64,000 bases of DNA from positions 708,880 to 772,879 of the forward strand of contig JALVSY010000007.1 in the NCBI GenBank assembly GCA_027036135.1, given 5' to 3'. The DNA is from Pyrodictiaceae archaeon (GTDB lineage Archaea > Thermoproteota > Thermoprotei_A > Sulfolobales > Pyrodictiaceae). Positions 8,789-17,289 of this stretch are shown in pieces. The notes beneath the pieces were generated by a model that saw only the letters and a program-made list of their open reading frames with translations, was not told the origin of the DNA and did not search any database. The first letter of the stretch is position 1. Every line of letters starts with the position of its first letter. The translations under genes were made by a program, and so were the position numbers.

Positions 8789-9103
8789 TCTTCGTTCTCG
8801 ATGATGGATTTCTATTGGTTGATGCCGGGGCTTCTTGATTCTCAAGGTTTTGAGACACCTAGTACACGATGCCCCTTGAACAACGCTGCGGTTATCTTCA
8901 CGGGAAGCAGAGCTGCTTGCCGAGGCGTCCCTCGAATGCTCCCTCATTGCTGCAAGAAGCGCTACGCTAGGGTAAAAGTCGTTGCTCCTGCCTCATCCCG
9001 GATCACGATATGTACATTACTACAGAGAAGCTTTGTCCACGGCAACGCGGATAAAACCTGGGTACAAGCCTTTCCTTGTTTCTTCTTGGGTGCGTTAGGT
9101 TCC

Positions 9104-11065
9104 TTGCGAAAAGAGCTTGTTAAGCCCGAGAGCCTTGATGGACTAGTCCTCGTCTCTAGCCCTGCTGTACCACCTAGGTGCAGTGACCACATCTACTACG
9201 TTGCTACGAGGGTTTCTGTTCAGCAAGACCGCTATGAATCCGCTATAATGCTCTACGATACTGGTAGTGGCGAGCACCGCGTCCTCCAAGGCGGGCCTAG
9301 TGATACGTGCCCGCTTCCCTCACCCGACGGTTCACGCTACTTGTTCATTCATCGCCCCGAGCAACGTAGCCAAAGGGATAGGAAGCAGCCGGGGCTCGAG
9401 CTTAGACTAGCTAGCCCTGGCTCAACAGGTAGTGTGGTTGTGGCTAGGATTCGTGGACTCGTCTCAGCAGCGTGGAGCCCCGACTCTCGGAGAGTTGTTG
9501 CTGCTATCCCGGTTGGGGAGCCAGATGAGGATATTAAGCTTGTTACTCGCCTACCTGTCTGGTTTAACGGCAAGGGCTATGTCTATAATACCCAGGTCAA
9601 GCCCTTCATAATCGACGTTGACTCCGGCGACATGACCGAGATCGATATCGGGCTTGAATGGGTACAAGTGGGTAGTGTTGATTGGAGCCCTGATGGAAGG
9701 TACATAGTGATACTGGCCTCCTATGACGAGAAGAAGCCCTTCCTCTACCGGCTATACGTCTACGACAGTGTTAGGGAGGAATACTGGGTAGCTGCCGAGG
9801 GACTCAGCGGGTACGGGGAGCTAGCATGGAGTCCCGACTCTAAGAGGGTAGCTTATCTGGGCCACCGGCTTGAGCGGGGTTTCGCTACGCACAACCGAGT
9901 AATAGTTATTGATCCGTGGGGCGGAGAGGAGTGCCTCACGTGCAGTCTTGGGCGAAACGCTAGTAACACAGTTAATAGTGATGTCCGTGGCCCGAACTGC
10001 TCTAAGCGACTAGCATGGACGCGTAGGGGCATACTCTTCCTCATGAGTGACGGCGGCGAGGTTAAGCTCTATAGCGTCTTGCCGGGCAAGGAGCCTCGGC
10101 CCGTGATCGCTCCAAGAGGAGGAGTAGTTGACGAGTTTGCCACCGATATTAGTGGCGAGCTGGTAGCCTATACCTTTATGACCCCGACGAGCCCCAAGGA
10201 GCTATACCTTTACCTCGATAACAAGGCAATCAGGATAACGCGGCATACCGAGGCATGGGTTAACAAGCACCTTCTCTCCTCCCCGGAGAGGATAGCGTTC
10301 AGGGCAAGTGATGGAGCCCTTGTTGAGGGCTGGGTACTGAGACCACCTCGTGGCGTGGAGGAGAGGGGCTGGGTACTCTACATCCACGGCGGTCCCAAGA
10401 CCATGTGGGGCTACGGCTTCATGCACGAGTTCCATGTACTGACTTCAGCTGGGTACACAGTTCTTTATGTTAACCCGCGGGGAAGCGATGGCTACTCAGA
10501 GGAGTTTGCTGACATAAGGTGCCGTTACGGTGAGAGAGACTACGAGGACCTAATGGAGGCAGCTAAGTACGCGGTAACAGAACTAGGCCTCGCCGAGGAC
10601 CGAGCAGCTGTTATGGGCGGGAGCTACGGCGGCTTCATGACGAACTGGGTAATAGGGCACACCGGCTTCTTCAAGGCGGCGGTGACGATGAGGAATATAT
10701 CTAACTGGATAAGCATGTACGGTACCACCGACATAGGCTGGTACTTCGTCGAGGACCAGATATGCTGCACGCCCTGGAAGAACCCGGAGCGGTGCTGGGA
10801 GAAGAGCCCACTACGCTACATCGACAAGGCCAAGACACCCACGCTCATAATCCATAGTGACCAGGATTATCGGTGCTGGCTAGACCAGGCCTTGCAGCTC
10901 TACACAGCGCTAAGGCTACACGGCGTGGATACGAAGCTAGCAATATTCCCTGGCGAGAACCACGACCTATCGCGCAGCGGGAAGCCGAAGCACAGGGTAA
11001 AACGACTACAACTAGTACTAGAGTGGCTAGACAAACACATAGGTGAGAAAAAGGGGCTAGCTTAG
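9104..11065 (+). CDS. S9 family (prolyl oligopeptidase/acylaminoacyl) peptidase
   Basis: WSPD propeller repeats, IHGGP, nucleophile GGSYGG, HSDQDYRC, GENH. Start moved to the in-frame TTG at 9104 because the track start overlaps trkH. Confidence 0.92.
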   Translation: MRKELVKPESLDGLVLVSSPAVPPRCSDHIYYVATRVSVQQDRYESAIMLYDTGSGEHRVLQGGPSDTCPLPSPDGSRYLFIHRPEQRSQRDRKQPGLELRLASPGSTGSVVVARIRGLVSAAWSPDSRRVVAAIPVGEPDEDIKLVTRLPVWFNGKGYVYNTQVKPFIIDVDSGDMTEIDIGLEWVQVGSVDWSPDGRYIVILASYDEKKPFLYRLYVYDSVREEYWVAAEGLSGYGELAWSPDSKRVAYLGHRLERGFATHNRVIVIDPWGGEECLTCSLGRNASNTVNSDVRGPNCSKRLAWTRRGILFLMSDGGEVKLYSVLPGKEPRPVIAPRGGVVDEFATDISGELVAYTFMTPTSPKELYLYLDNKAIRITRHTEAWVNKHLLSSPERIAFRASDGALVEGWVLRPPRGVEERGWVLYIHGGPKTMWGYGFMHEFHVLTSAGYTVLYVNPRGSDGYSEEFADIRCRYGERDYEDLMEAAKYAVTELGLAEDRAAVMGGSYGGFMTNWVIGHTGFFKAAVTMRNISNWISMYGTTDIGWYFVEDQICCTPWKNPERCWEKSPLRYIDKAKTPTLIIHSDQDYRCWLDQALQLYTALRLHGVDTKLAIFPGENHDLSRSGKPKHRVKRLQLVLEWLDKHIGEKKGLA

Positions 11066-11873
11066 TAGCTTCTTCTCTATCTCCCTCTCTATCTCGCCAG
11101 CTCTCCTCGTGGCCACTCTTACTGCCTCTATGACTGCTGACTTGAAGCCCCGGCCCTCTAGGATGCCTATCGCGGCTATCGTCGTGCCCGCGGGGGTCGT
11201 TACCTCGTCCCTTAGCTCTGCTGGGTGAAGGTCACTGTGCTCTGATAGATACCTAGTAGTAGTCTCTAGTAACTTGGTCACGAGGCTCCTAGCAGTGCTC
11301 CTGGGCAGCCCCACTGCTAGGGACGCTAGGAAGAACGCGTCAAGGAACTCGGCGACAATAGCTGGCCCCGAGCCCGCTACTGCTGTCCAAGCATCCATGA
11401 GTTCCTCGGATATCTCGTAGACCTCGCCGAAGCAGTTAAGCATTCTCCTCACCTCCTCGGCATGCTCGGAGCCCGGTGGAGAATATAGCCCGGTGAGGCT
11501 CTTCCGGATCCTTATGTTGAGGTTCGGCATTGCGCGGTGAATCTCGGCCCCTGGTAGGGCTTCGCGGAGTACTCGGGTAGAGATAGCAGCCATAACTGAG
11601 ACGACCACCTTGCCCGCAACGTCTCCCCGGATGTCCCTCGCTACTGCTGGGAACTGGTAGGGCTTCACAGCCAGGAACACATAGTCGGACTCCCGGACAG
11701 CGCACCTATTACAATTAGTTGCATCGAGCCCCGTCGAGCGGAGACGATTAAGGGTCCCGGGGCTACGCGCCGTCACTTTTACCTCTGCGCCGCACTCCTT
11801 CAGGGAGAGGGCTATCACCGAGCCTACCTTACCGCCACCAATAACAGCTACTCTAGTACCCTGGAAGACTCAT
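11057..11873 (-). CDS. proC: Pyrroline-5-carboxylate reductase (apparent +1 frameshift in codon 5)
   Basis: LAVKP, RAMPN, AGSGPA and VTTPAGTTIAAI motifs. The Rossmann VAVIGGGKVG lies upstream of the track start. The ATG at 11873 is one base out of frame (CCA GGG TAC). Confidence 0.9.
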
Positions 11874-11927
11874 CCCACGATACACCAAGGCACCGAGAGT
11901 GGGGAGAAGGGAGGTATAAAAACATTA

Positions 11928-12953
11928 TTACTCTCTCACATGGATTAGGCCGAGCTTCTTTAAGAGCAATGCGTATTCGAGCCTTGGTCTCGTGTGCCAC
12001 CTGTCCTCAAAGGGATCGTAGAGCTCATACGGGAAGGGGAACACCATTGTCCGGTAGCGCACGTATATGTCTAGGTCACAGCCTTCCCGGATCAATATAT
12101 CCGAGAGGGAACCGCTCATCGTTACCCCAGCCATTGCTCCCAGCTTTGAGTAATAGAGGTATGTTGACTCACCAGTAGCTGCTAACGCGCCGTAGAGAGT
12201 ATCGGTGCAGCGCTTATCCGTGCCAATAAGGGCCTTTACGCCGCTAAGGCCGCTCGAGACGTATACTCTGCCAAGAACATAGGCCTCACTTAGCCTGCGA
12301 TAATAGCGATTAATGTACTTAGGCTTAATACTACCCTGCAATGGCGCTGGCAAGTCCCTTGAGGCAGCTATGTTGATAATATCGCCTATCTTCTTAAGTG
12401 TCAACAAGGGGTCGTGGTCGAGCACTGCTATGAGTACGTGCGCTAGTACTGGTGTACGGAGTTCTAGCTTCTCTATACTAACGAGTTCGTGGAGGTGTTT
12501 ACCCAGCTTGTTAACTAGCTTAGGCTCACGCCTACCGAGACAGTTCTGTACTGGTATCTTCCACCCATAGTAGCCCTCATCGAGCCACTCAACGGGACTA
12601 CCCGGGTCTATCCCGGGCGGTATGAACCATGATATGAAGAGCTGCTTGGAGTTAAGCAGAGAAATAGTATGAATATACCATGGCAGGGGGAGCCCCTGCT
12701 TCTCAAGGAACTCGTTTGAGACTGTTCTCAGACGATGCAATCGTCTCCAGAGGCCTGGGTCGACGCGTTTTACTCCATAGACTACGCCTATGCCCATAGG
12801 CTTGAGGTGCTTGAGGTGGAAACTGCGGAGAGAGGAGCTCTTCTTAATTGTCTCTATGTAGCGGTAGCGAGTAGCAGGTGCAAGGCCCAGGTCGTCTAAG
12901 CGGAAATCATAGCAGCTCAGCTTCACAATGAATTCCTCGAAGCCTGTGCTCAT
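11928..12953 (-). CDS. Hypothetical protein with two HTH-like segments, putative transcriptional regulator
   Basis: LGLAPATRYRYIETIKK near the N-terminus and AVLDHDPLLTLKKIGD...PKYINRYYRRL mid-protein resemble tandem Lrp/AsnC-like wHTH units. Inference from pattern only. Confidence 0.5.
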   Translation of the reverse strand: MSTGFEEFIVKLSCYDFRLDDLGLAPATRYRYIETIKKSSSLRSFHLKHLKPMGIGVVYGVKRVDPGLWRRLHRLRTVSNEFLEKQGLPLPWYIHTISLLNSKQLFISWFIPPGIDPGSPVEWLDEGYYGWKIPVQNCLGRREPKLVNKLGKHLHELVSIEKLELRTPVLAHVLIAVLDHDPLLTLKKIGDIINIAASRDLPAPLQGSIKPKYINRYYRRLSEAYVLGRVYVSSGLSGVKALIGTDKRCTDTLYGALAATGESTYLYYSKLGAMAGVTMSGSLSDILIREGCDLDIYVRYRTMVFPFPYELYDPFEDRWHTRPRLEYALLLKKLGLIHVRE

Positions 12954-13059
12954 TATTCTGTTAACCCTTGTTTGTTCCTGTTATTCCGCCTCATACATGT
13001 TTTGTGAAAATAGCATTGAAAACAGAAAACAATTACTTAACAATAAAGTGGTGAAACAC

Positions 13060-13209
13060 ATGAACACCAAGAAGATAAAGCTCGTACTAGCCCAGCTAGT
13101 ATCAAGGAAAGAGGTACGCATAGCAATACTCGTAGCAGCCTTGCTCCTAGCCAAGAACCTACTACCAAATGCAAAGGCCCGGGACATAGGCGACATACCC
13201 GACGCCTAA
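13060..13209 (+). CDS. 49-aa secreted peptide precursor (MNTKKIKLVLAQLVSRKEVRIAILVAALLLAKNLLPNAKARDIGDIPDA)
   Basis: GGTGA RBS 6 nt before ATG 13060, AT-rich promoter upstream, T-tract downstream. Basic n-region, hydrophobic h-region and AKA cleavage motif. Confidence 0.7.
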   Translation: MNTKKIKLVLAQLVSRKEVRIAILVAALLLAKNLLPNAKARDIGDIPDA

Positions 13210-13215
13210 GAACCT

Positions 13216-13233
13216 GCTTTTAAGTTTTTCTCT
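13216..13233 (+). terminator. Oligo-T archaeal terminator after the peptide gene
   Basis: GCTTTTAAGTTTTTCTCT starting 7 nt after the TAA stop. Confidence 0.5.
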
Positions 13234-13368
13234 AAGCCTCTTCATTAAATTCTTTAACACACCCTATACGCTGGTAACACCCACTACTCCTACCGGGTGT
13301 AAACTATACCCGCATTCCGGGACAAAGCCCTCGGCCTAAGAGCAATACTCAGGGCACACGCTCGCAAA

Positions 13369-13584
13369 ATGTACGGGAAAGAGCTTGAGCAACTCACACG
13401 CCAAGAACTCCACAACCTAGTCTCAACAGTAATGCCTGGCCGAGAGAAACTAGTTGAGAAAATCTACTGGAGCAGCAGAGAAGAGGAAACACTAGCCGAG
13501 CAAATCGAGCCAGGTTCGCTAAAAAATCGAGTACCCTACCCAGCAATAGAGCGGAGAAATAACAAGGCTACACTCTTCATGTAG
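13369..13584 (+). CDS. Small hypothetical protein or gene remnant
   Basis: Protein-like helical sequence. The frame extends about 20 codons upstream without a start codon, so it may be a fragment. Confidence 0.35.
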   Translation: MYGKELEQLTRQELHNLVSTVMPGREKLVEKIYWSSREEETLAEQIEPGSLKNRVPYPAIERRNNKATLFM

Positions 13585-13738
13585 CTAGATATAGCCATAG
13601 CCTCTATTCTACCAGTTAGCTAGCACCTTCTCATCCATGCCCAGAGTTGCTTCCTTAATTATTTCATGTCCTCGAAATATAGTTTTGGTGCTTCAAGGAC
13701 TCGGTAGAGGCTTCAATAACCAGCCTATGTTGTTATCG

Positions 13739-14869
13739 TTAAAGGCTAGGAGGAATGCGCTTGAACAGGCCCCGGGGCCAAGCTATGAAGACGGTTACGA
13801 GTAGCGCTAGTACAAGTAATACTAGTGAGGCTGTGCCGCTTATAGGGAAGCTTATGGCTGCTAGGAATAGGAGGATGTAGTTTAGTGCTGTGTAGCGCCT
13901 TGCTGTCGGTATCCCGAGGATTATCGGAACCATCATTGGCGCGTGTATCAGTATGTGCTGGGTTACGAATCCTATCGTGGTCATGTGTATGAAGATGTAG
14001 AGTAGCTTGTATATATTCGGTGACTTGGAGTACATGAGGCTAGAGGCCAGCACCATTATGACATAGATCGCCGCGAATACGTGGCCTACTAGGAAGTATA
14101 GGTGGCTGCTCCTCGCAGGCCCCCTCTTCATCGCTCTCGTCTTCTCTAGGAAGACTAGGAGCTTATCCATCCTTGCCGCTGGTATGTAGAGGAGCATGGT
14201 TAATGCCAGGGCTAGCGCTCCGAGCGGTGGCCGCCAAGCGTATAGTGCTAGGCTTGCTCCCTGCGCCGCGTAGAGAGCGTAGACCAAGGAGGTTCTTGGC
14301 TTCTCACCGTAAGTGGATGGAAATGAGTGAATAGTTACAGCATAGATACTGGTAACCGCTAGGGCATAGACAAGGCCTAGGTAGTAGGTAAAGAAGCCCC
14401 TAGCCGGGTTAGAAGCCAGCGCATAGATCGCTGAGAGCGTGTAGGCATAGGCGAGCCCAGCTATGCTTAAGCCAACGCTTCCCCGAGGCGCCTCAGCAAC
14501 CGCTATCCATAGGGCTACTGCATACAATGCATAAATCGTTGCAAGAAGAGACCTGGGAGGAAGCCTATCTAGGAGCACAAGTCCCCCGAGGCCTAGACCC
14601 GCTAAGGCAACGATATAGGTAGCAATAACAAGTACTAAGGCTACCTTCTCTGCTCTCTTTGAGCGACGAGTACCCGAGGCCGCATAACTAGTAGCTATAC
14701 CAGCAACAAAGACAGCTAGTACAGTACTGGCCATTAGTGCTGCGTGAAACGCTGTATAGCCGCGAAGGGCCTCCCATAGAGCCTCCGCGAGTAGGAAGAA
14801 GCTGATGTACACTGCGAACGCACTGCTACGATGAACCAGCTTAATCCACGAGGCCAAGATACTCCCCAT
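13739..14869 (-). CDS. Polytopic membrane protein, NnrS-like (nitric-oxide response)
   Basis: About 11-12 TM helices and His motifs IHSFP, GH and IHMTTIGFVTQHILIHAPMMVPIILG, as in NnrS-like proteins. A qNor gene lies 10 kb away. Confidence 0.55.
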   Translation of the reverse strand: MGSILASWIKLVHRSSAFAVYISFFLLAEALWEALRGYTAFHAALMASTVLAVFVAGIATSYAASGTRRSKRAEKVALVLVIATYIVALAGLGLGGLVLLDRLPPRSLLATIYALYAVALWIAVAEAPRGSVGLSIAGLAYAYTLSAIYALASNPARGFFTYYLGLVYALAVTSIYAVTIHSFPSTYGEKPRTSLVYALYAAQGASLALYAWRPPLGALALALTMLLYIPAARMDKLLVFLEKTRAMKRGPARSSHLYFLVGHVFAAIYVIMVLASSLMYSKSPNIYKLLYIFIHMTTIGFVTQHILIHAPMMVPIILGIPTARRYTALNYILLFLAAISFPISGTASLVLLVLALLVTVFIAWPRGLFKRIPPSL

Positions 14870-14943
14870 GATAAAGTATACGTGTCTATACCTAGGGCAT
14901 TATCAAGGCTTCCACATATGCTCCGCGGGGAACCGAAAAAGAC

Positions 14944-15510
14944 CTACATAATATACACCACTATCCTGTCCCGGTACTCAACAACACCTCCCTCCACTAC
15001 ACCGTCCCAGCGATAAAGCAGATAGAACCTCTCAGCATCACCATGGACTAGCCAGAAGTAGAGAGCATTAACCACGTCGGGCGCGCCACCAGCAAGGTTC
15101 GCAGCAGCCATGACGCAGGCTATGCCGCCTAGGATAGAGTACTGGGTGGCTAGGTAGAGTAGGAGAGGCGTTAGTATCTGTGGCGCGAGAGTCACTAAGA
15201 GGTATTGGCTCGGTGTCATGTAATCATAGTCTAGCATGAGGGCTACCAGCTTCCTGTTGAAGAGGAGCCTAGCGCCAGGAACCCGGAGAGCAACCGCTAC
15301 CGCGTAGTGAGTCGCCTCATGCACCGCGACAAGGAGCAGCGCCGCAGCAATGTAGACAAGGAGACTAGCTGGGCACCCGGTAGCCCTATTGAGCAGGTAG
15401 AGCGACTCACAATGATTCGCGAACACGAGAGGCATAGAGACGAGCACTAGTATTGCTAGGAATAACCCGGCGTAGAGGGGCTTAAACCTCGCTATCTCTA
15501 CTCTTTGCAC
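14944..15510 (-). CDS. Membrane zincin metalloprotease (DUF3267/M50-like)
   Basis: VHEATH (HExxH) in a TM segment, LAP, and NLAGGAPD third-ligand motif. Confidence 0.7.
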   Translation of the reverse strand: MQRVEIARFKPLYAGLFLAILVLVSMPLVFANHCESLYLLNRATGCPASLLVYIAAALLLVAVHEATHYAVAVALRVPGARLLFNRKLVALMLDYDYMTPSQYLLVTLAPQILTPLLLYLATQYSILGGIACVMAAANLAGGAPDVVNALYFWLVHGDAERFYLLYRWDGVVEGGVVEYRDRIVVYIM

Positions 15511-16184
15511 CTTCTCAGCATCTCCTCTTGCTTACTGAGCACCTCCTCGGCACTAGCTACTGGGTCTCCGGCTCCTGTTATTAGTCTACCAACTATCTCG
15601 TAGTCAGCTCCGGCGCAGAGGGCCTCGCCTGGCCTTGCTCCCTGGGCACCTATGCCGGGTGATAGTATCTTCACGCCTTGTCCAAGGGTCTTCCTCGTCT
15701 CTCGTATTATTGCTGGCCTCGTAGCTGGGGCGACGACGCCCCATGGTCTCAGCTTGGCTGCTACGCTGAGTATGCTGGGTAGCGCTTTGTCGTAGACCTC
15801 CTCGGCTCCCGGATGACTCATAGAGACTACTATTATCAGTTTCTTGCCCAGGCTGTCCAAGTATTCTTTGAGCTCGTCGAGCGCGCCCCGTACGCCAACG
15901 AAGCCATGGGCTATCACGGCATCAACGCTGCTAGCTACACTTGACGCTACTAGCTTCATCACATGGCCTATATCCGCTAGCTTGAGGTCGGCAATCCATA
16001 GTTTCTCTGGGCAGGCTCCGCGAAGCTCGCTAAGAGACTGTACACCGTTTGCTAAGAGGAATGGGAGACCCACCTTGAACCCAGCTACCCGGGTACATAG
16101 ACTCCTAGTCAGCCCCCTAGCCTCCTCTACGCCGAGACCATCTATCGCAACTATCAGCGTCAATACGAGAGCCCCGCAGCACAC
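15498..16184 (-). CDS. pyrF: Orotidine-5'-phosphate decarboxylase
   Basis: FKVG, DLKLADIG, MSHP, SPGIGAQG and IVGR motifs. Confidence 0.96.
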   Translation of the reverse strand: MCCGALVLTLIVAIDGLGVEEARGLTRSLCTRVAGFKVGLPFLLANGVQSLSELRGACPEKLWIADLKLADIGHVMKLVASSVASSVDAVIAHGFVGVRGALDELKEYLDSLGKKLIIVVSMSHPGAEEVYDKALPSILSVAAKLRPWGVVAPATRPAIIRETRKTLGQGVKILSPGIGAQGARPGEALCAGADYEIVGRLITGAGDPVASAEEVLSKQEEMLRRCKE

Positions 16185-16377
16185 TAAAGCCCAGTACCAG
16201 GATTAAATGATGACCGTCCACAACGCTTCTTCATAGTAATTATTAATAAAATTATCAACATGTGAATGGCGTATGGGGGAAAGTTTCTTGCTGGACTACG
16301 TAATGGAAAAATATTACCCTTAATAGTTGCTTTAATTCGGTCCCTACTTATGCTCGTTACCGGAGGATAGCTGCGCT

Positions 16378-17289
16378 GTGTCTCCTAGCCTGGAGACGAA
16401 GATTGGGGGACTTGTGCTTCGGCACCCAGTTATGAACGCTAGTGGTATTCTCGGCTCCAGTACTGAAGGGTTTGAGAGACTGGTAAGGGCTGGGGTAGCG
16501 GCGCTTGTTACTAAGTCTTTTACACGACTGCCCCGCCGAGGCTACCCTACTCCTATAGCTGTGCCGCTTCCCTATGGGTTGCTGAACGCTGTTGGCCTTA
16601 GCAATCCGGGTGCAGAGGCTCTGCCAGAGCTGTTACGCTATGCTCGGGGGCTCGGTGTCCCGGTTGTAGTAAGTATTGCTGGTAGCGACGAGGAGGAGTT
16701 CGCGGAGGTAGCGGTTGTTGCCGAGGAGAGCGGTGCTAGCGCTGTTGAGCTTAATCTTAGCTGTCCTCATGCGCGGGGAAGGGGCCTAGAGCTAGGCATG
16801 GATCCTGGGAAGGTGAAGAGCATTGTCTCGGCAGTAGCCTCCACGGTAAAGGTGCCGGTGTGGGCCAAGCTGGGTATGAGTGACCGCTTATTGGACTCGG
16901 CAAGCGCCGCGCTAGAGGCTGGTGCAAGAGCCTTGGTACTCATCAATACTATCCGGGCTATGAGGATAGACGTGTGGGCTAAGAAACCAGTGCTTGGTAA
17001 TAGAATTGGAAGTTTATCTGGGCCAGCTATTCACCCCGTGGCTGTACGCGCTGTCTACGAGGTCTATGGCGAGACGGGGGCCGATATAGTAGGAGTTGGT
17101 GGAGTTGAGGACTGGGAGACCGCGGTCGAGTTAGTGCTTGCGGGTGCACGCGCCGTGCAAGTGGGAACAGCCATAGTGACCCGGGGGGAGCAGGTGATAG
17201 CAGAAATCCTTGAGGGTATCAAGAGGTACTTAGAGCTAGTGGGTGCTAGGAGCCTAGAGGAGCTGGTAGGGGCTGCGCACCGAGCCTAG
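16378..17289 (+). CDS. pyrD: Dihydroorotate dehydrogenase (class 1)
   Basis: MNASG, NAVGLSNPG, ELNLSCPH, INT, LSGPAIHP and GVGG motifs. Divergent from pyrF. Confidence 0.95.
   Translation: MSPSLETKIGGLVLRHPVMNASGILGSSTEGFERLVRAGVAALVTKSFTRLPRRGYPTPIAVPLPYGLLNAVGLSNPGAEALPELLRYARGLGVPVVVSIAGSDEEEFAEVAVVAEESGASAVELNLSCPHARGRGLELGMDPGKVKSIVSAVASTVKVPVWAKLGMSDRLLDSASAALEAGARALVLINTIRAMRIDVWAKKPVLGNRIGSLSGPAIHPVAVRAVYEVYGETGADIVGVGGVEDWETAVELVLAGARAVQVGTAIVTRGEQVIAEILEGIKRYLELVGARSLEELVGAAHRA

Follow-up and report, generated by a model that had tools for sequence, protein, structure and literature searches.

A three-gene cassette of Pyrodictiaceae with a conserved micro-gene and a predicted double Lrp/AsnC protein: a possible peptide-controlled switch

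What is the role of a gene that encodes little more than a signal-peptide-like segment and lies head to head with the gene for a protein bearing two helix-turn-helix (HTH)-like segments? This question is raised by a locus within the window, the 64,000-nucleotide (nt) stretch of DNA analysed here (G000:C7:708880-772879), which is part of the 2.2-Mb genome of a Pyrodictiaceae archaeon. In the initial annotation the two genes, a 49-codon micro-gene and the divergent gene for a 341-amino-acid (aa) protein, were read as a possible peptide-signalling module; a third conserved gene and the occurrence of the locus in multiple paralogous copies were overlooked. Comparative analyses showed that the micro-open reading frame (micro-ORF) is a real and conserved gene, more than a chance frame, and that it belongs to a three-gene cassette found, among the genomes searched, in Pyrodictiaceae and in one genome of a neighbouring family. 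The 341-aa protein is, judged from its structural model, a single-chain double Lrp/AsnC module, whose two winged HTH (wHTH) and two RAM-like alpha-beta domains would form a built-in pseudo-dimer. The third gene, which travels with the double-Lrp gene and the micro-gene, codes for a predicted helical protein that resembles the PH0832/NitrOD5 adaptors. The cassette may be a peptide-controlled switch.

A conserved micro-gene

At all 13 loci that bear a micro-ORF, a homologous frame of 40-53 aa accompanies a homologue of the 341-aa protein (hereafter the big protein). Within the family to which the window belongs they cover three genera (g1, g9, and g11); a metagenome contig and a single genome from a neighbouring family are also represented. 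Scans of loci with relatives of the big protein recovered an ORF of 40-55 aa and of like build, mostly divergent, at 12 loci (the window, G000:C7:154k, G000:C2, G004, G012, G014, G018, G021, G023, G024, G042, and one metagenome contig). Locus L098 in genome G114, which belongs to another family and was outside the training set, also has a divergent micro-ORF directly upstream of the big gene (E 3e-6 among 116 frames). In the initial annotation, the lack of a peptide ORF next to homologous big genes was to count as a refutation; instead, a neighbouring short ORF of the expected build is present at 12 of the 19 loci in the cassette clade (see below) and at the out-of-sample locus L098. When a hidden Markov model was built from nine peptides of other genomes, the window ORF ranked first among 46,697 six-frame ORFs (E 5.3e-9). 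A micro-peptide profile searched against 29 whole genomes of the family gave 11 matches at E <= 2e-8, all of which adjoin a gene of the 341-aa type; as these 11 were training members of that profile, the informative point is that no strong match occurred elsewhere in the 29 genomes.

The pattern of substitutions is that of a coding sequence. Between G018 and G023 the micro-ORFs differ at 27 bases, distributed over the codon positions as 5/3/19, and the codon changes are 17 synonymous versus 6 non-synonymous. Contigs of related strains contain two variants in the window micro-ORF (13141 T>C and 13164 A>G), both read as synonymous Leu; on contig X5, no population variant falls within 12954-13129 versus 13 in the big gene, a difference that is not significant. 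A Shine-Dalgarno (SD)-like GGTG, GAGG, or GGAG precedes the start by 4-18 nt in 9 of 12 homologous micro-genes (background 0.18), and a run of five or more T follows within 80 nt in 11 of 12 (background 0.04). For the window gene, the 49 codons, the GGTGA ribosome-binding site, the T-tract, and the monocistronic appearance were confirmed at the coordinates first assigned to them (Table 1). No families were matched by the micro-protein in Pfam, NCBIfam, or PADLOC, and the public protein collection holds 29 called homologues. In Hyperthermus butylicus a 53-aa homologue is annotated as "hypothetical protein". The public homologues also show that relatives do not have a longer protein of which the micro-ORF would be a stub.

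These ~50-aa proteins form a conserved family that is easily mis-called. In the window's own contig the public gene call is a 70-aa form. Its ATG (12997) is in frame and upstream of the 49-codon start, and a mere 43 nt separate it from the start of the 341-aa gene. The position of the 49-codon start reads V (GTG) in six of seven orthologues, and the 70-codon frame stays open there; for P0062, which has diverged most among the orthologues, the public collection gives a 49-aa protein. A start giving 49 rather than 70 codons is favoured because of the position of the SD-like site and because the length is 40-53 aa in all other groups.

The micro-protein (MNTKKIKLVLAQLVSRKEVRIAILVAALLLAKNLLPNAKARDIGDIPDA) begins with MNTKK, ends with AKARDIGDIPDA, and consists of a 20-aa basic n-region, an 11-aa apolar run (IAILVAALLLA), the segment KNLLPNAKA, and the tail RDIGDIPDA. 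The signal-peptide-like front and short tail that had been described for this one peptide recur in the whole set: the longest apolar run measures 8-14 aa in 13/13 peptides, following an n-region of 13-23 aa and preceding 11-28 further residues, and the n-region has a net positive charge in 11/13 (the exceptions are L061 with net -1 and L098 with net 0). Apolar cores of 8-14 aa are in the range of signal-peptide h-regions and are short for a membrane helix. By eye, proline and small residues (A-K-A, A-K-G, A-E-G, T-Q-A etc.) follow the core in most peptides. The front is conserved in sequence, for example as K-x-L-x-x-L-L...P-E-x-[KR]-[IL]-A. The tails comprise 6-12 aa and are acidic and mostly proline-bearing, with the motif [DE]-[VIL]-P-x-x (examples of tails are DIGDIPDA, EEVPAD, KEVPAD, IKLPIA, RDAPTF, WDVPAF, IIDDPAA, and KDPPFFTG; in one peptide group the tail ends with DVG[AV]V). 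Seven orthologues of the window peptide are 82-96% identical to it; six of them retain all of the last 12 residues, and the n-region takes 1-7 changes that are mostly conservative. The tails of the three paralogous cassettes in this genome all differ. The orthologous peptides were taken from the protein collection, without their DNA; the copies of close orthologues in the contig and metagenome scans end at a contig edge (L034 is present from residue 27, and L036 and L012 with the C-terminus only). G002:C60, which had been considered as a close orthologue, was rejected as another paralogue.

One relative of the micro-protein stands apart from any cassette. This orphan of 75 aa (G000:C7:634937-635167; L077 4935-5162, minus strand) has a like front (MKTLKKILARLAMDPKTKIALVAAV…) and a longer tail with a YGDPKYY/YGDPRYY repeat. 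It stands alone and adjoins succinyl-CoA synthetase genes, and weak matches suggest copies in G001 and G002.

The big protein, the adaptor, and their distribution

Profile searches with the 341-aa protein against Pfam and NCBIfam returned no family at E <= 0.1, and PHROGs and PADLOC gave nothing; the Pfam HTH_AsnC-type/HTH_24 and AsnC_trans_reg signatures were not found in it. Among 1.84 billion representatives it has 42 relatives at E <= 1e-3, of which the named ones are all "hypothetical". Its AlphaFold2 model, based on a 36-row alignment, reached a predicted local distance difference test score (pLDDT) of 96.1 and a predicted template modelling score of 0.92. The domains are wHTH1 (residues ~1-65), alpha-beta domain 1 (~90-160), wHTH2 (~166-228), which carries an insertion, and a second, RAM-like alpha-beta domain (~229-305), and the C-terminus contains a conserved FPFPYELYDPxxxxW stretch. 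In Foldseek the only significant matches in the PDB are to the siroheme decarboxylase NirDL (4ch7 and 4czc, E 5.5e-8 and 8.2e-8, prob 1.0). With VIA-align against 48,161 chains, 4czc_A came first at Z 9.8 (256 aligned residues, root-mean-square deviation 5.3, ~11% identity) and the next row had 5.5. In the same comparison residues 162-313 align to more than 10 Lrp/AsnC regulators (Z 4.0-4.6) and residues 2-143 to the halophilic Lrp 8q90 (Z 3.6), scores that are modest in both cases. The double Lrp/AsnC assignment therefore supports the two HTH-like segments that the initial annotation had noticed. The family thus modelled is an uncharacterised one, absent from Pfam, with a predicted fused double-Lrp fold. 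In an atlas of protein clusters, its neighbours are archaeal HTH_24/HTH_AsnC-type clusters of 326-444 aa, mostly of 350 aa or more (scores 0.83-0.89), which are leads only. A sequence search of the PDB with the 341-aa profile yielded only short Kelch-repeat matches to the YDP..W motif, which were judged spurious.

The big-protein family is basic (median isoelectric point 9.4), and both wHTH segments have isoelectric points of 9.5-9.8. Pro89, Pro134, Tyr218, Ser222, Gly228, Arg229, and Trp319 are invariant, and Cys14, Asp16, His46, and Cys138 are nearly so. The possibility that the 341-aa protein is the siroheme decarboxylase of the cell was considered and rejected, because a genuine copy exists elsewhere in the genome and hhalign gives a probability of only 0.1 between the two profiles. 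This genuine fused enzyme of 330 aa (G000:C30:177512-178255; L096 1483-2472, minus strand) contains two PF22451 (NirdL-like_HTH) and two PF17805 (AsnC_trans_reg2) domains, neither of which was found as a signature in the 341-aa protein, and it adjoins radical-SAM/SPASM genes of the alternative haem pathway. Among 30 neighbours scanned at six cassettes there was no radical SAM gene.

The third gene was recognised as a conserved frame with the motif G-L-x-A-[IVL]-L...A-[RK]-[RK]-x-[YF]-G-x-x-[LF]-E-x-L, which was found next to the big gene at 13 loci. The third gene follows the micro-gene in the window, G018, G023, G021, G024, and G014, and it follows the big gene or is convergent to it in G000:C7:154k, G004, and G012. 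The profile of the third gene matches PH0832 of Pyrococcus horikoshii (2p9x) with E 1.6e-5. PF11537 (NitrOD5) is matched by 2 of 13 members at E <= 0.01 (best score 25.3 bits versus a cut-off of 27); the Pfam PF11537 model had no match in the window's own genome, and searches of the third protein against PHROGs and PADLOC gave nothing. Its AlphaFold2 model consists of three helices (pLDDT 73.9), and the top Foldseek row is again 2p9x (E 0.5, prob 0.85). Galperin et al. (2018; PMC5847659) list the PH0832/NitrOD5 family among the signalling domains that serve as outputs or stand alone. In the window's copy, the stretch that encodes the conserved N-terminus (13309-13368; …RDKALGLRAILRAHARK) is in frame and free of stops. 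The frame contains no ATG, GTG, or TTG before ATG 13369, which is the only canonical start, and the strain variants at 13329 and 13357 create no start codon. A non-canonical start, a recent loss of the start, or a shorter product are possible.

The big-protein family is present in 17 of the 29 genomes of the window's family. Across the class, 7 of 151 sampled genomes contain it, namely the window's own genome, five of six others of its family, and 1 of 25 of family f8, whereas none of the 119 genomes sampled from other families does. The window's genome has four big-family loci, one of them split into two frames, and three paralogous cassettes. In a tree of 31 locus-derived big proteins, all 12 micro-ORF loci and all loci with the third gene fall into one major clade; micro-ORFs occur at 12/19 loci of this cassette clade versus 0/12 elsewhere, and the third gene is likewise absent elsewhere. 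The big gene and the micro-gene are arranged head to head in 11/13 loci. At L064 the micro-gene is convergent and downstream, and at L037, L043, and L044 it is the third gene that lies on the other side. The cassette has been duplicated as a unit, with diverged tails. It is chromosomal and stable, since proC and the gene for an S9-peptidase-like protein are retained on its other side in L034, the orthologous metagenome contig.

Some big-family genes are interrupted. The paralogue at G000:C7:154592-155790 (L037 8593-9791) is split into frames of 132 and 288 aa, probably by a frameshift, and the micro-gene and third gene of this cassette are intact. One in-frame TAG each was found in G023:C1:1272381-1273247 and G015:C1:317151-318284, and one TGA in G004:C1:1343889-1344932; these genes may be pseudogenes or reflect sequencing errors.

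Table 1. Features of the cassette and its immediate surroundings (positions in the window)
Feature	Position	Strand	Basis
341-aa gene, fused double Lrp/AsnC-like protein (predicted fold)	11928-12953	-	ORF list
Divergent intergenic (promoter) region, 106 nt	12954-13059	.	sequence read
Inverted repeat TGTTTT (12998-13003)-N15-AAAACA (13019-13024)	12998-13024	.	sequence read
GGTGA, SD-like site, 5 nt 5' of the micro-gene ATG	13050-13054	+	sequence read
Micro-gene, 49 codons + stop	13060-13209	+	ATG 13060, stop 13207-13209
T-tracts TTTT and TTTTT 3' of the micro-gene stop, archaeal terminator-like	13218-13221, 13225-13229	+	sequence read
Third gene, PH0832/NitrOD5-like small helical protein	13309-13584	+	conserved frame, profile match
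376-aa polytopic membrane protein	13739-14869	convergent to cassette	no Pfam family
188-aa DUF3267 zincin-like membrane peptidase, HEATH	14944-15510	-	PF11667 "putative zincin peptidase", E 5.4e-8

The window's cassette is flanked by proC, pyrimidine genes, and an S9 peptidase-like ORF. Beyond the third gene lie the genes for the 376-aa membrane protein and the DUF3267 peptidase. Neither was found at any of the 12 related loci with which the window was compared, and the HExxH protease that the initial annotation noted close by is not part of the cassette. The Pfam scan of 30 neighbours at six cassettes revealed otherwise unrelated genes. Transglutaminase-like genes (DUF553/Transglut_core) lie downstream of the big gene in two of the six (L039 6907-8490 and L044 6032-7117), at a distance of only 22 nt in L039 and with a PaREP1/HEPN gene in between in L044. 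CcmF-like cytochrome c assembly genes of ~1010 aa (L039 10735-13770 and L040 10477-13509) are found in G018 and G023, where ~0.5 kb separates them from the third gene of the cassette.

The intergenic region between the divergent genes contains the inverted repeat that had been singled out as a promoter element. The repeat is present, and its occurrence is at about the level of chance: roughly one such 6-bp inverted repeat is expected within 106 nt according to our own analytic estimate, which is based on the base composition (~3,100 position/spacer combinations x ~4e-4). A search of positions 9000-17000 against Rfam gave only sub-threshold rows. In the ~60 nt that precede the micro-gene, G018 and G023 (L050/L053) share a near-identical block (…TATTTATGTTTTTGTAGCGTAACAT[T/A]TGAAAGAGACCAA…). 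The coding parts are less conserved than this block, the flanking intergenic DNA has diverged, and the block resembles the window only loosely; it is a candidate promoter or operator.

A possible switch and its alternatives

How could the products of the cassette work together? It is possible, if somewhat short of probable, that the exported tail of the micro-protein is the cognate effector of its own double-Lrp regulator. The double-Lrp protein would bind the shared promoter region and control the micro-gene. Its product would be targeted to the Sec pathway and cut after a site of the A-K-A type; Sec targeting is suggested because an apolar core of this length falls short of what a stable membrane helix needs and fits the h-region of signal peptides. 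The released tail (here RDIGDIPDA), or the uncut precursor, would then be the effector of the cognate double-Lrp protein and might dock between the two RAM-like domains, in the cleft that accommodates small ligands in the Lrp family. The third protein could serve as an adaptor that couples the switch to other signalling proteins, and different tails would keep the paralogous cassettes of one genome apart. A further-reaching proposal, namely peptide communication or self-sensing in Pyrodictiaceae, where each cassette exports an acidic, proline-bearing peptide of 6-12 residues that is read specifically by its own double-Lrp receptor, seems decidedly doubtful. Co-folding of the big and third proteins with the micro-protein scored 0.02 in both runs versus a mark of 0.32, a result that counts neither way.

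Several observations weigh against the tail as effector. If the receptor is cytoplasmic, an exported peptide would have to be imported again, and no importer linked to the cassette was found in the Pfam scan of neighbours. No operator motif common to the loci was seen by eye in 11 intergenic regions. Seven of the 19 cassette-clade loci have no detectable micro-ORF (a convincing one was not found at L065/L046, L056, L055, L073, L013, L072, and L060). Judged by eye, at least 2 of the 13 peptides have no clear small residues at positions -3/-1 of the presumed cleavage site. An n-region of 13-23 aa is unusually long and conserved if it only serves as part of a signal peptide, and it would suit a cytoplasmic interaction or a role as membrane tether equally well. 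The C7:154k-type paralogue group combines a conserved front with a variable tail, and the similarity of tails tracks the tree of the big proteins, as plain co-inheritance would also give. Finally, the nearest solved fold is that of an enzyme, NirDL, and not of a regulator, and the nearly invariant Cys14, Asp16, His46, and Cys138 hint at a metal or catalytic site that is left unexplained by an effector role of the tail.

One alternative is that the 341-aa protein is an ordinary Lrp that responds to an amino acid or another metabolite, and the micro-protein merely a small exported or membrane product under its control, with an unrelated role of its own and without feedback. Divergent pairs of regulator and target are usual in the Lrp/AsnC family, and the predicted fold, the head-to-head layout, and the absence of a linked importer at the cassettes scanned are all in favour. 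This plausible but rather unlikely arrangement is harder to reconcile with the persistence of the pairing through rearrangements (at L064 for the micro-gene, and at L037, L043, and L044 for the third gene), with the duplication of the cassette as a unit whose tails diverged, and with the invariance of the tail in orthologues, which asks for a specific partner. Alternatively, the micro-protein could stay uncleaved, like small membrane modulators: its core would sit in the membrane, its basic, amphipathic cytoplasmic front would hold the double-Lrp protein or the adaptor, and the tail outside would sense a cue for release. Conservation of the front in sequence, unusual for the n-region of a signal peptide, would then be explained, and both the orphan relative, which shares the front and differs in its longer tail, and the presence of an adaptor-type third gene fit such a tether. 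We regard it as unlikely, given an apolar run that is short for a membrane-spanning helix and the proline and small-x-small residues after the core in most members.

The likeness to NirDL raises the question whether the 341-aa protein is a regulator at all. It might keep the NirDL/AhbAB scaffold and act on a tetrapyrrole-like or peptide substrate; in a variant resembling the biosynthesis of ribosomally synthesised and post-translationally modified peptides (RiPPs), the winged helices would recognise the conserved front as the leader of the micro-protein, whose tail would be the modified core. The best structural match, the four nearly invariant Cys, Asp, and His residues, a peptide with conserved front and variable tail, and the location of two cassettes near CcmF-type cytochrome c assembly genes could all be taken in this sense. 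Such an activity is nevertheless improbable: the genuine siroheme decarboxylase beside radical-SAM genes is separated from the 341-aa family by the low profile probability mentioned above, the cassettes scanned have no conserved gene for a tailoring enzyme, protease, or transporter, and the apolar core is unlike known RiPP leaders. Least of all would we expect the sequence of the peptide to be irrelevant, with the micro-ORF being a chance frame or a translated leader, for example an attenuator for the third gene. The T-tract terminator that precedes the third gene in the window would suit an attenuator, but the excess of synonymous over non-synonymous changes, the homology over 13 loci, the 29 homologues called independently in public data, and the position of the third gene in L037, L043, and L044, where it is not downstream of the micro-gene, already disfavour this very improbable explanation.

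If we return to the exported tail as effector, the cassette offers a concrete and testable candidate in cultivable hyperthermophiles, with a defined micro-gene and a putative receptor for which a confident model exists, and several natural cognate and non-cognate pairs are available as specificity controls. Should peptide communication be true, the paralogous cassettes would be separate channels. Even on the more sober readings, the cassette adds a family outside Pfam with a predicted fused double-Lrp fold, a conserved family of ~50-aa micro-proteins, and a new partner context for the PH0832/NitrOD5 adaptor domain.

Relation to known systems

The three-gene cassette is undescribed. Each half of the 341-aa protein, with its predicted wHTH and RAM-type domain, resembles Lrp/AsnC regulators (1i1g, 2dbb, 2e7w, 2cfx, and 2cg4; Z 3.6-4.6), and the basic character of the protein and the divergent orientation of its gene relative to a small neighbour are further likenesses. 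Unlike these regulators, it fuses two modules, gives no signal with the Pfam HTH_AsnC/AsnC_trans_reg models, and possesses the insertion in the second HTH, the FPFPYELYDP...W end, and the nearly invariant Cys/Asp/His/Cys set. NirDL and AhbA-AhbB (4ch7 and 4czc) share the fused two-module architecture over the whole length of 341 aa. In contrast to them, however, the family is multi-copy (four loci in this genome), lacks PF22451 and PF17805, and has no neighbours of the ahbC/ahbD type at the cassettes scanned. The third protein, in turn, is small, helical in its model, stand-alone, and multi-copy like PH0832/NitrOD5, but it remains below the Pfam cut-off, and its gene adjoins a double-Lrp gene instead of one for a REC domain or a KaiC-like ATPase.

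To our knowledge, no archaeal peptide signal with a genetically linked receptor has been established, and literature searches for such a signal, or for peptide pheromones paired with Lrp-type receptors, found no paper. The closest parallel in layout is provided by the RRNPP-type peptide/receptor cassettes of Bacillota, such as Rap-Phr, PlcR-PapR, and Rgg-SHP. Here as there, a small gene adjoins the gene of a putative receptor, its product combines a signal-peptide-like front with a short C-terminal tail, and paralogues differ in their tails. The differences are that the cassette is archaeal and includes an extra gene for a predicted adaptor, and that the fold of the putative receptor is predicted to be Lrp-like and not of the tetratricopeptide repeat (TPR) type. 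Thus, the cassette resembles RRNPP systems in layout, but the modelled receptor does not have the fold that defines them. If the tails are exported and do act as signals, this would represent a peptide-receptor principle built on the Lrp fold instead of the TPR fold of bacterial RRNPP systems.

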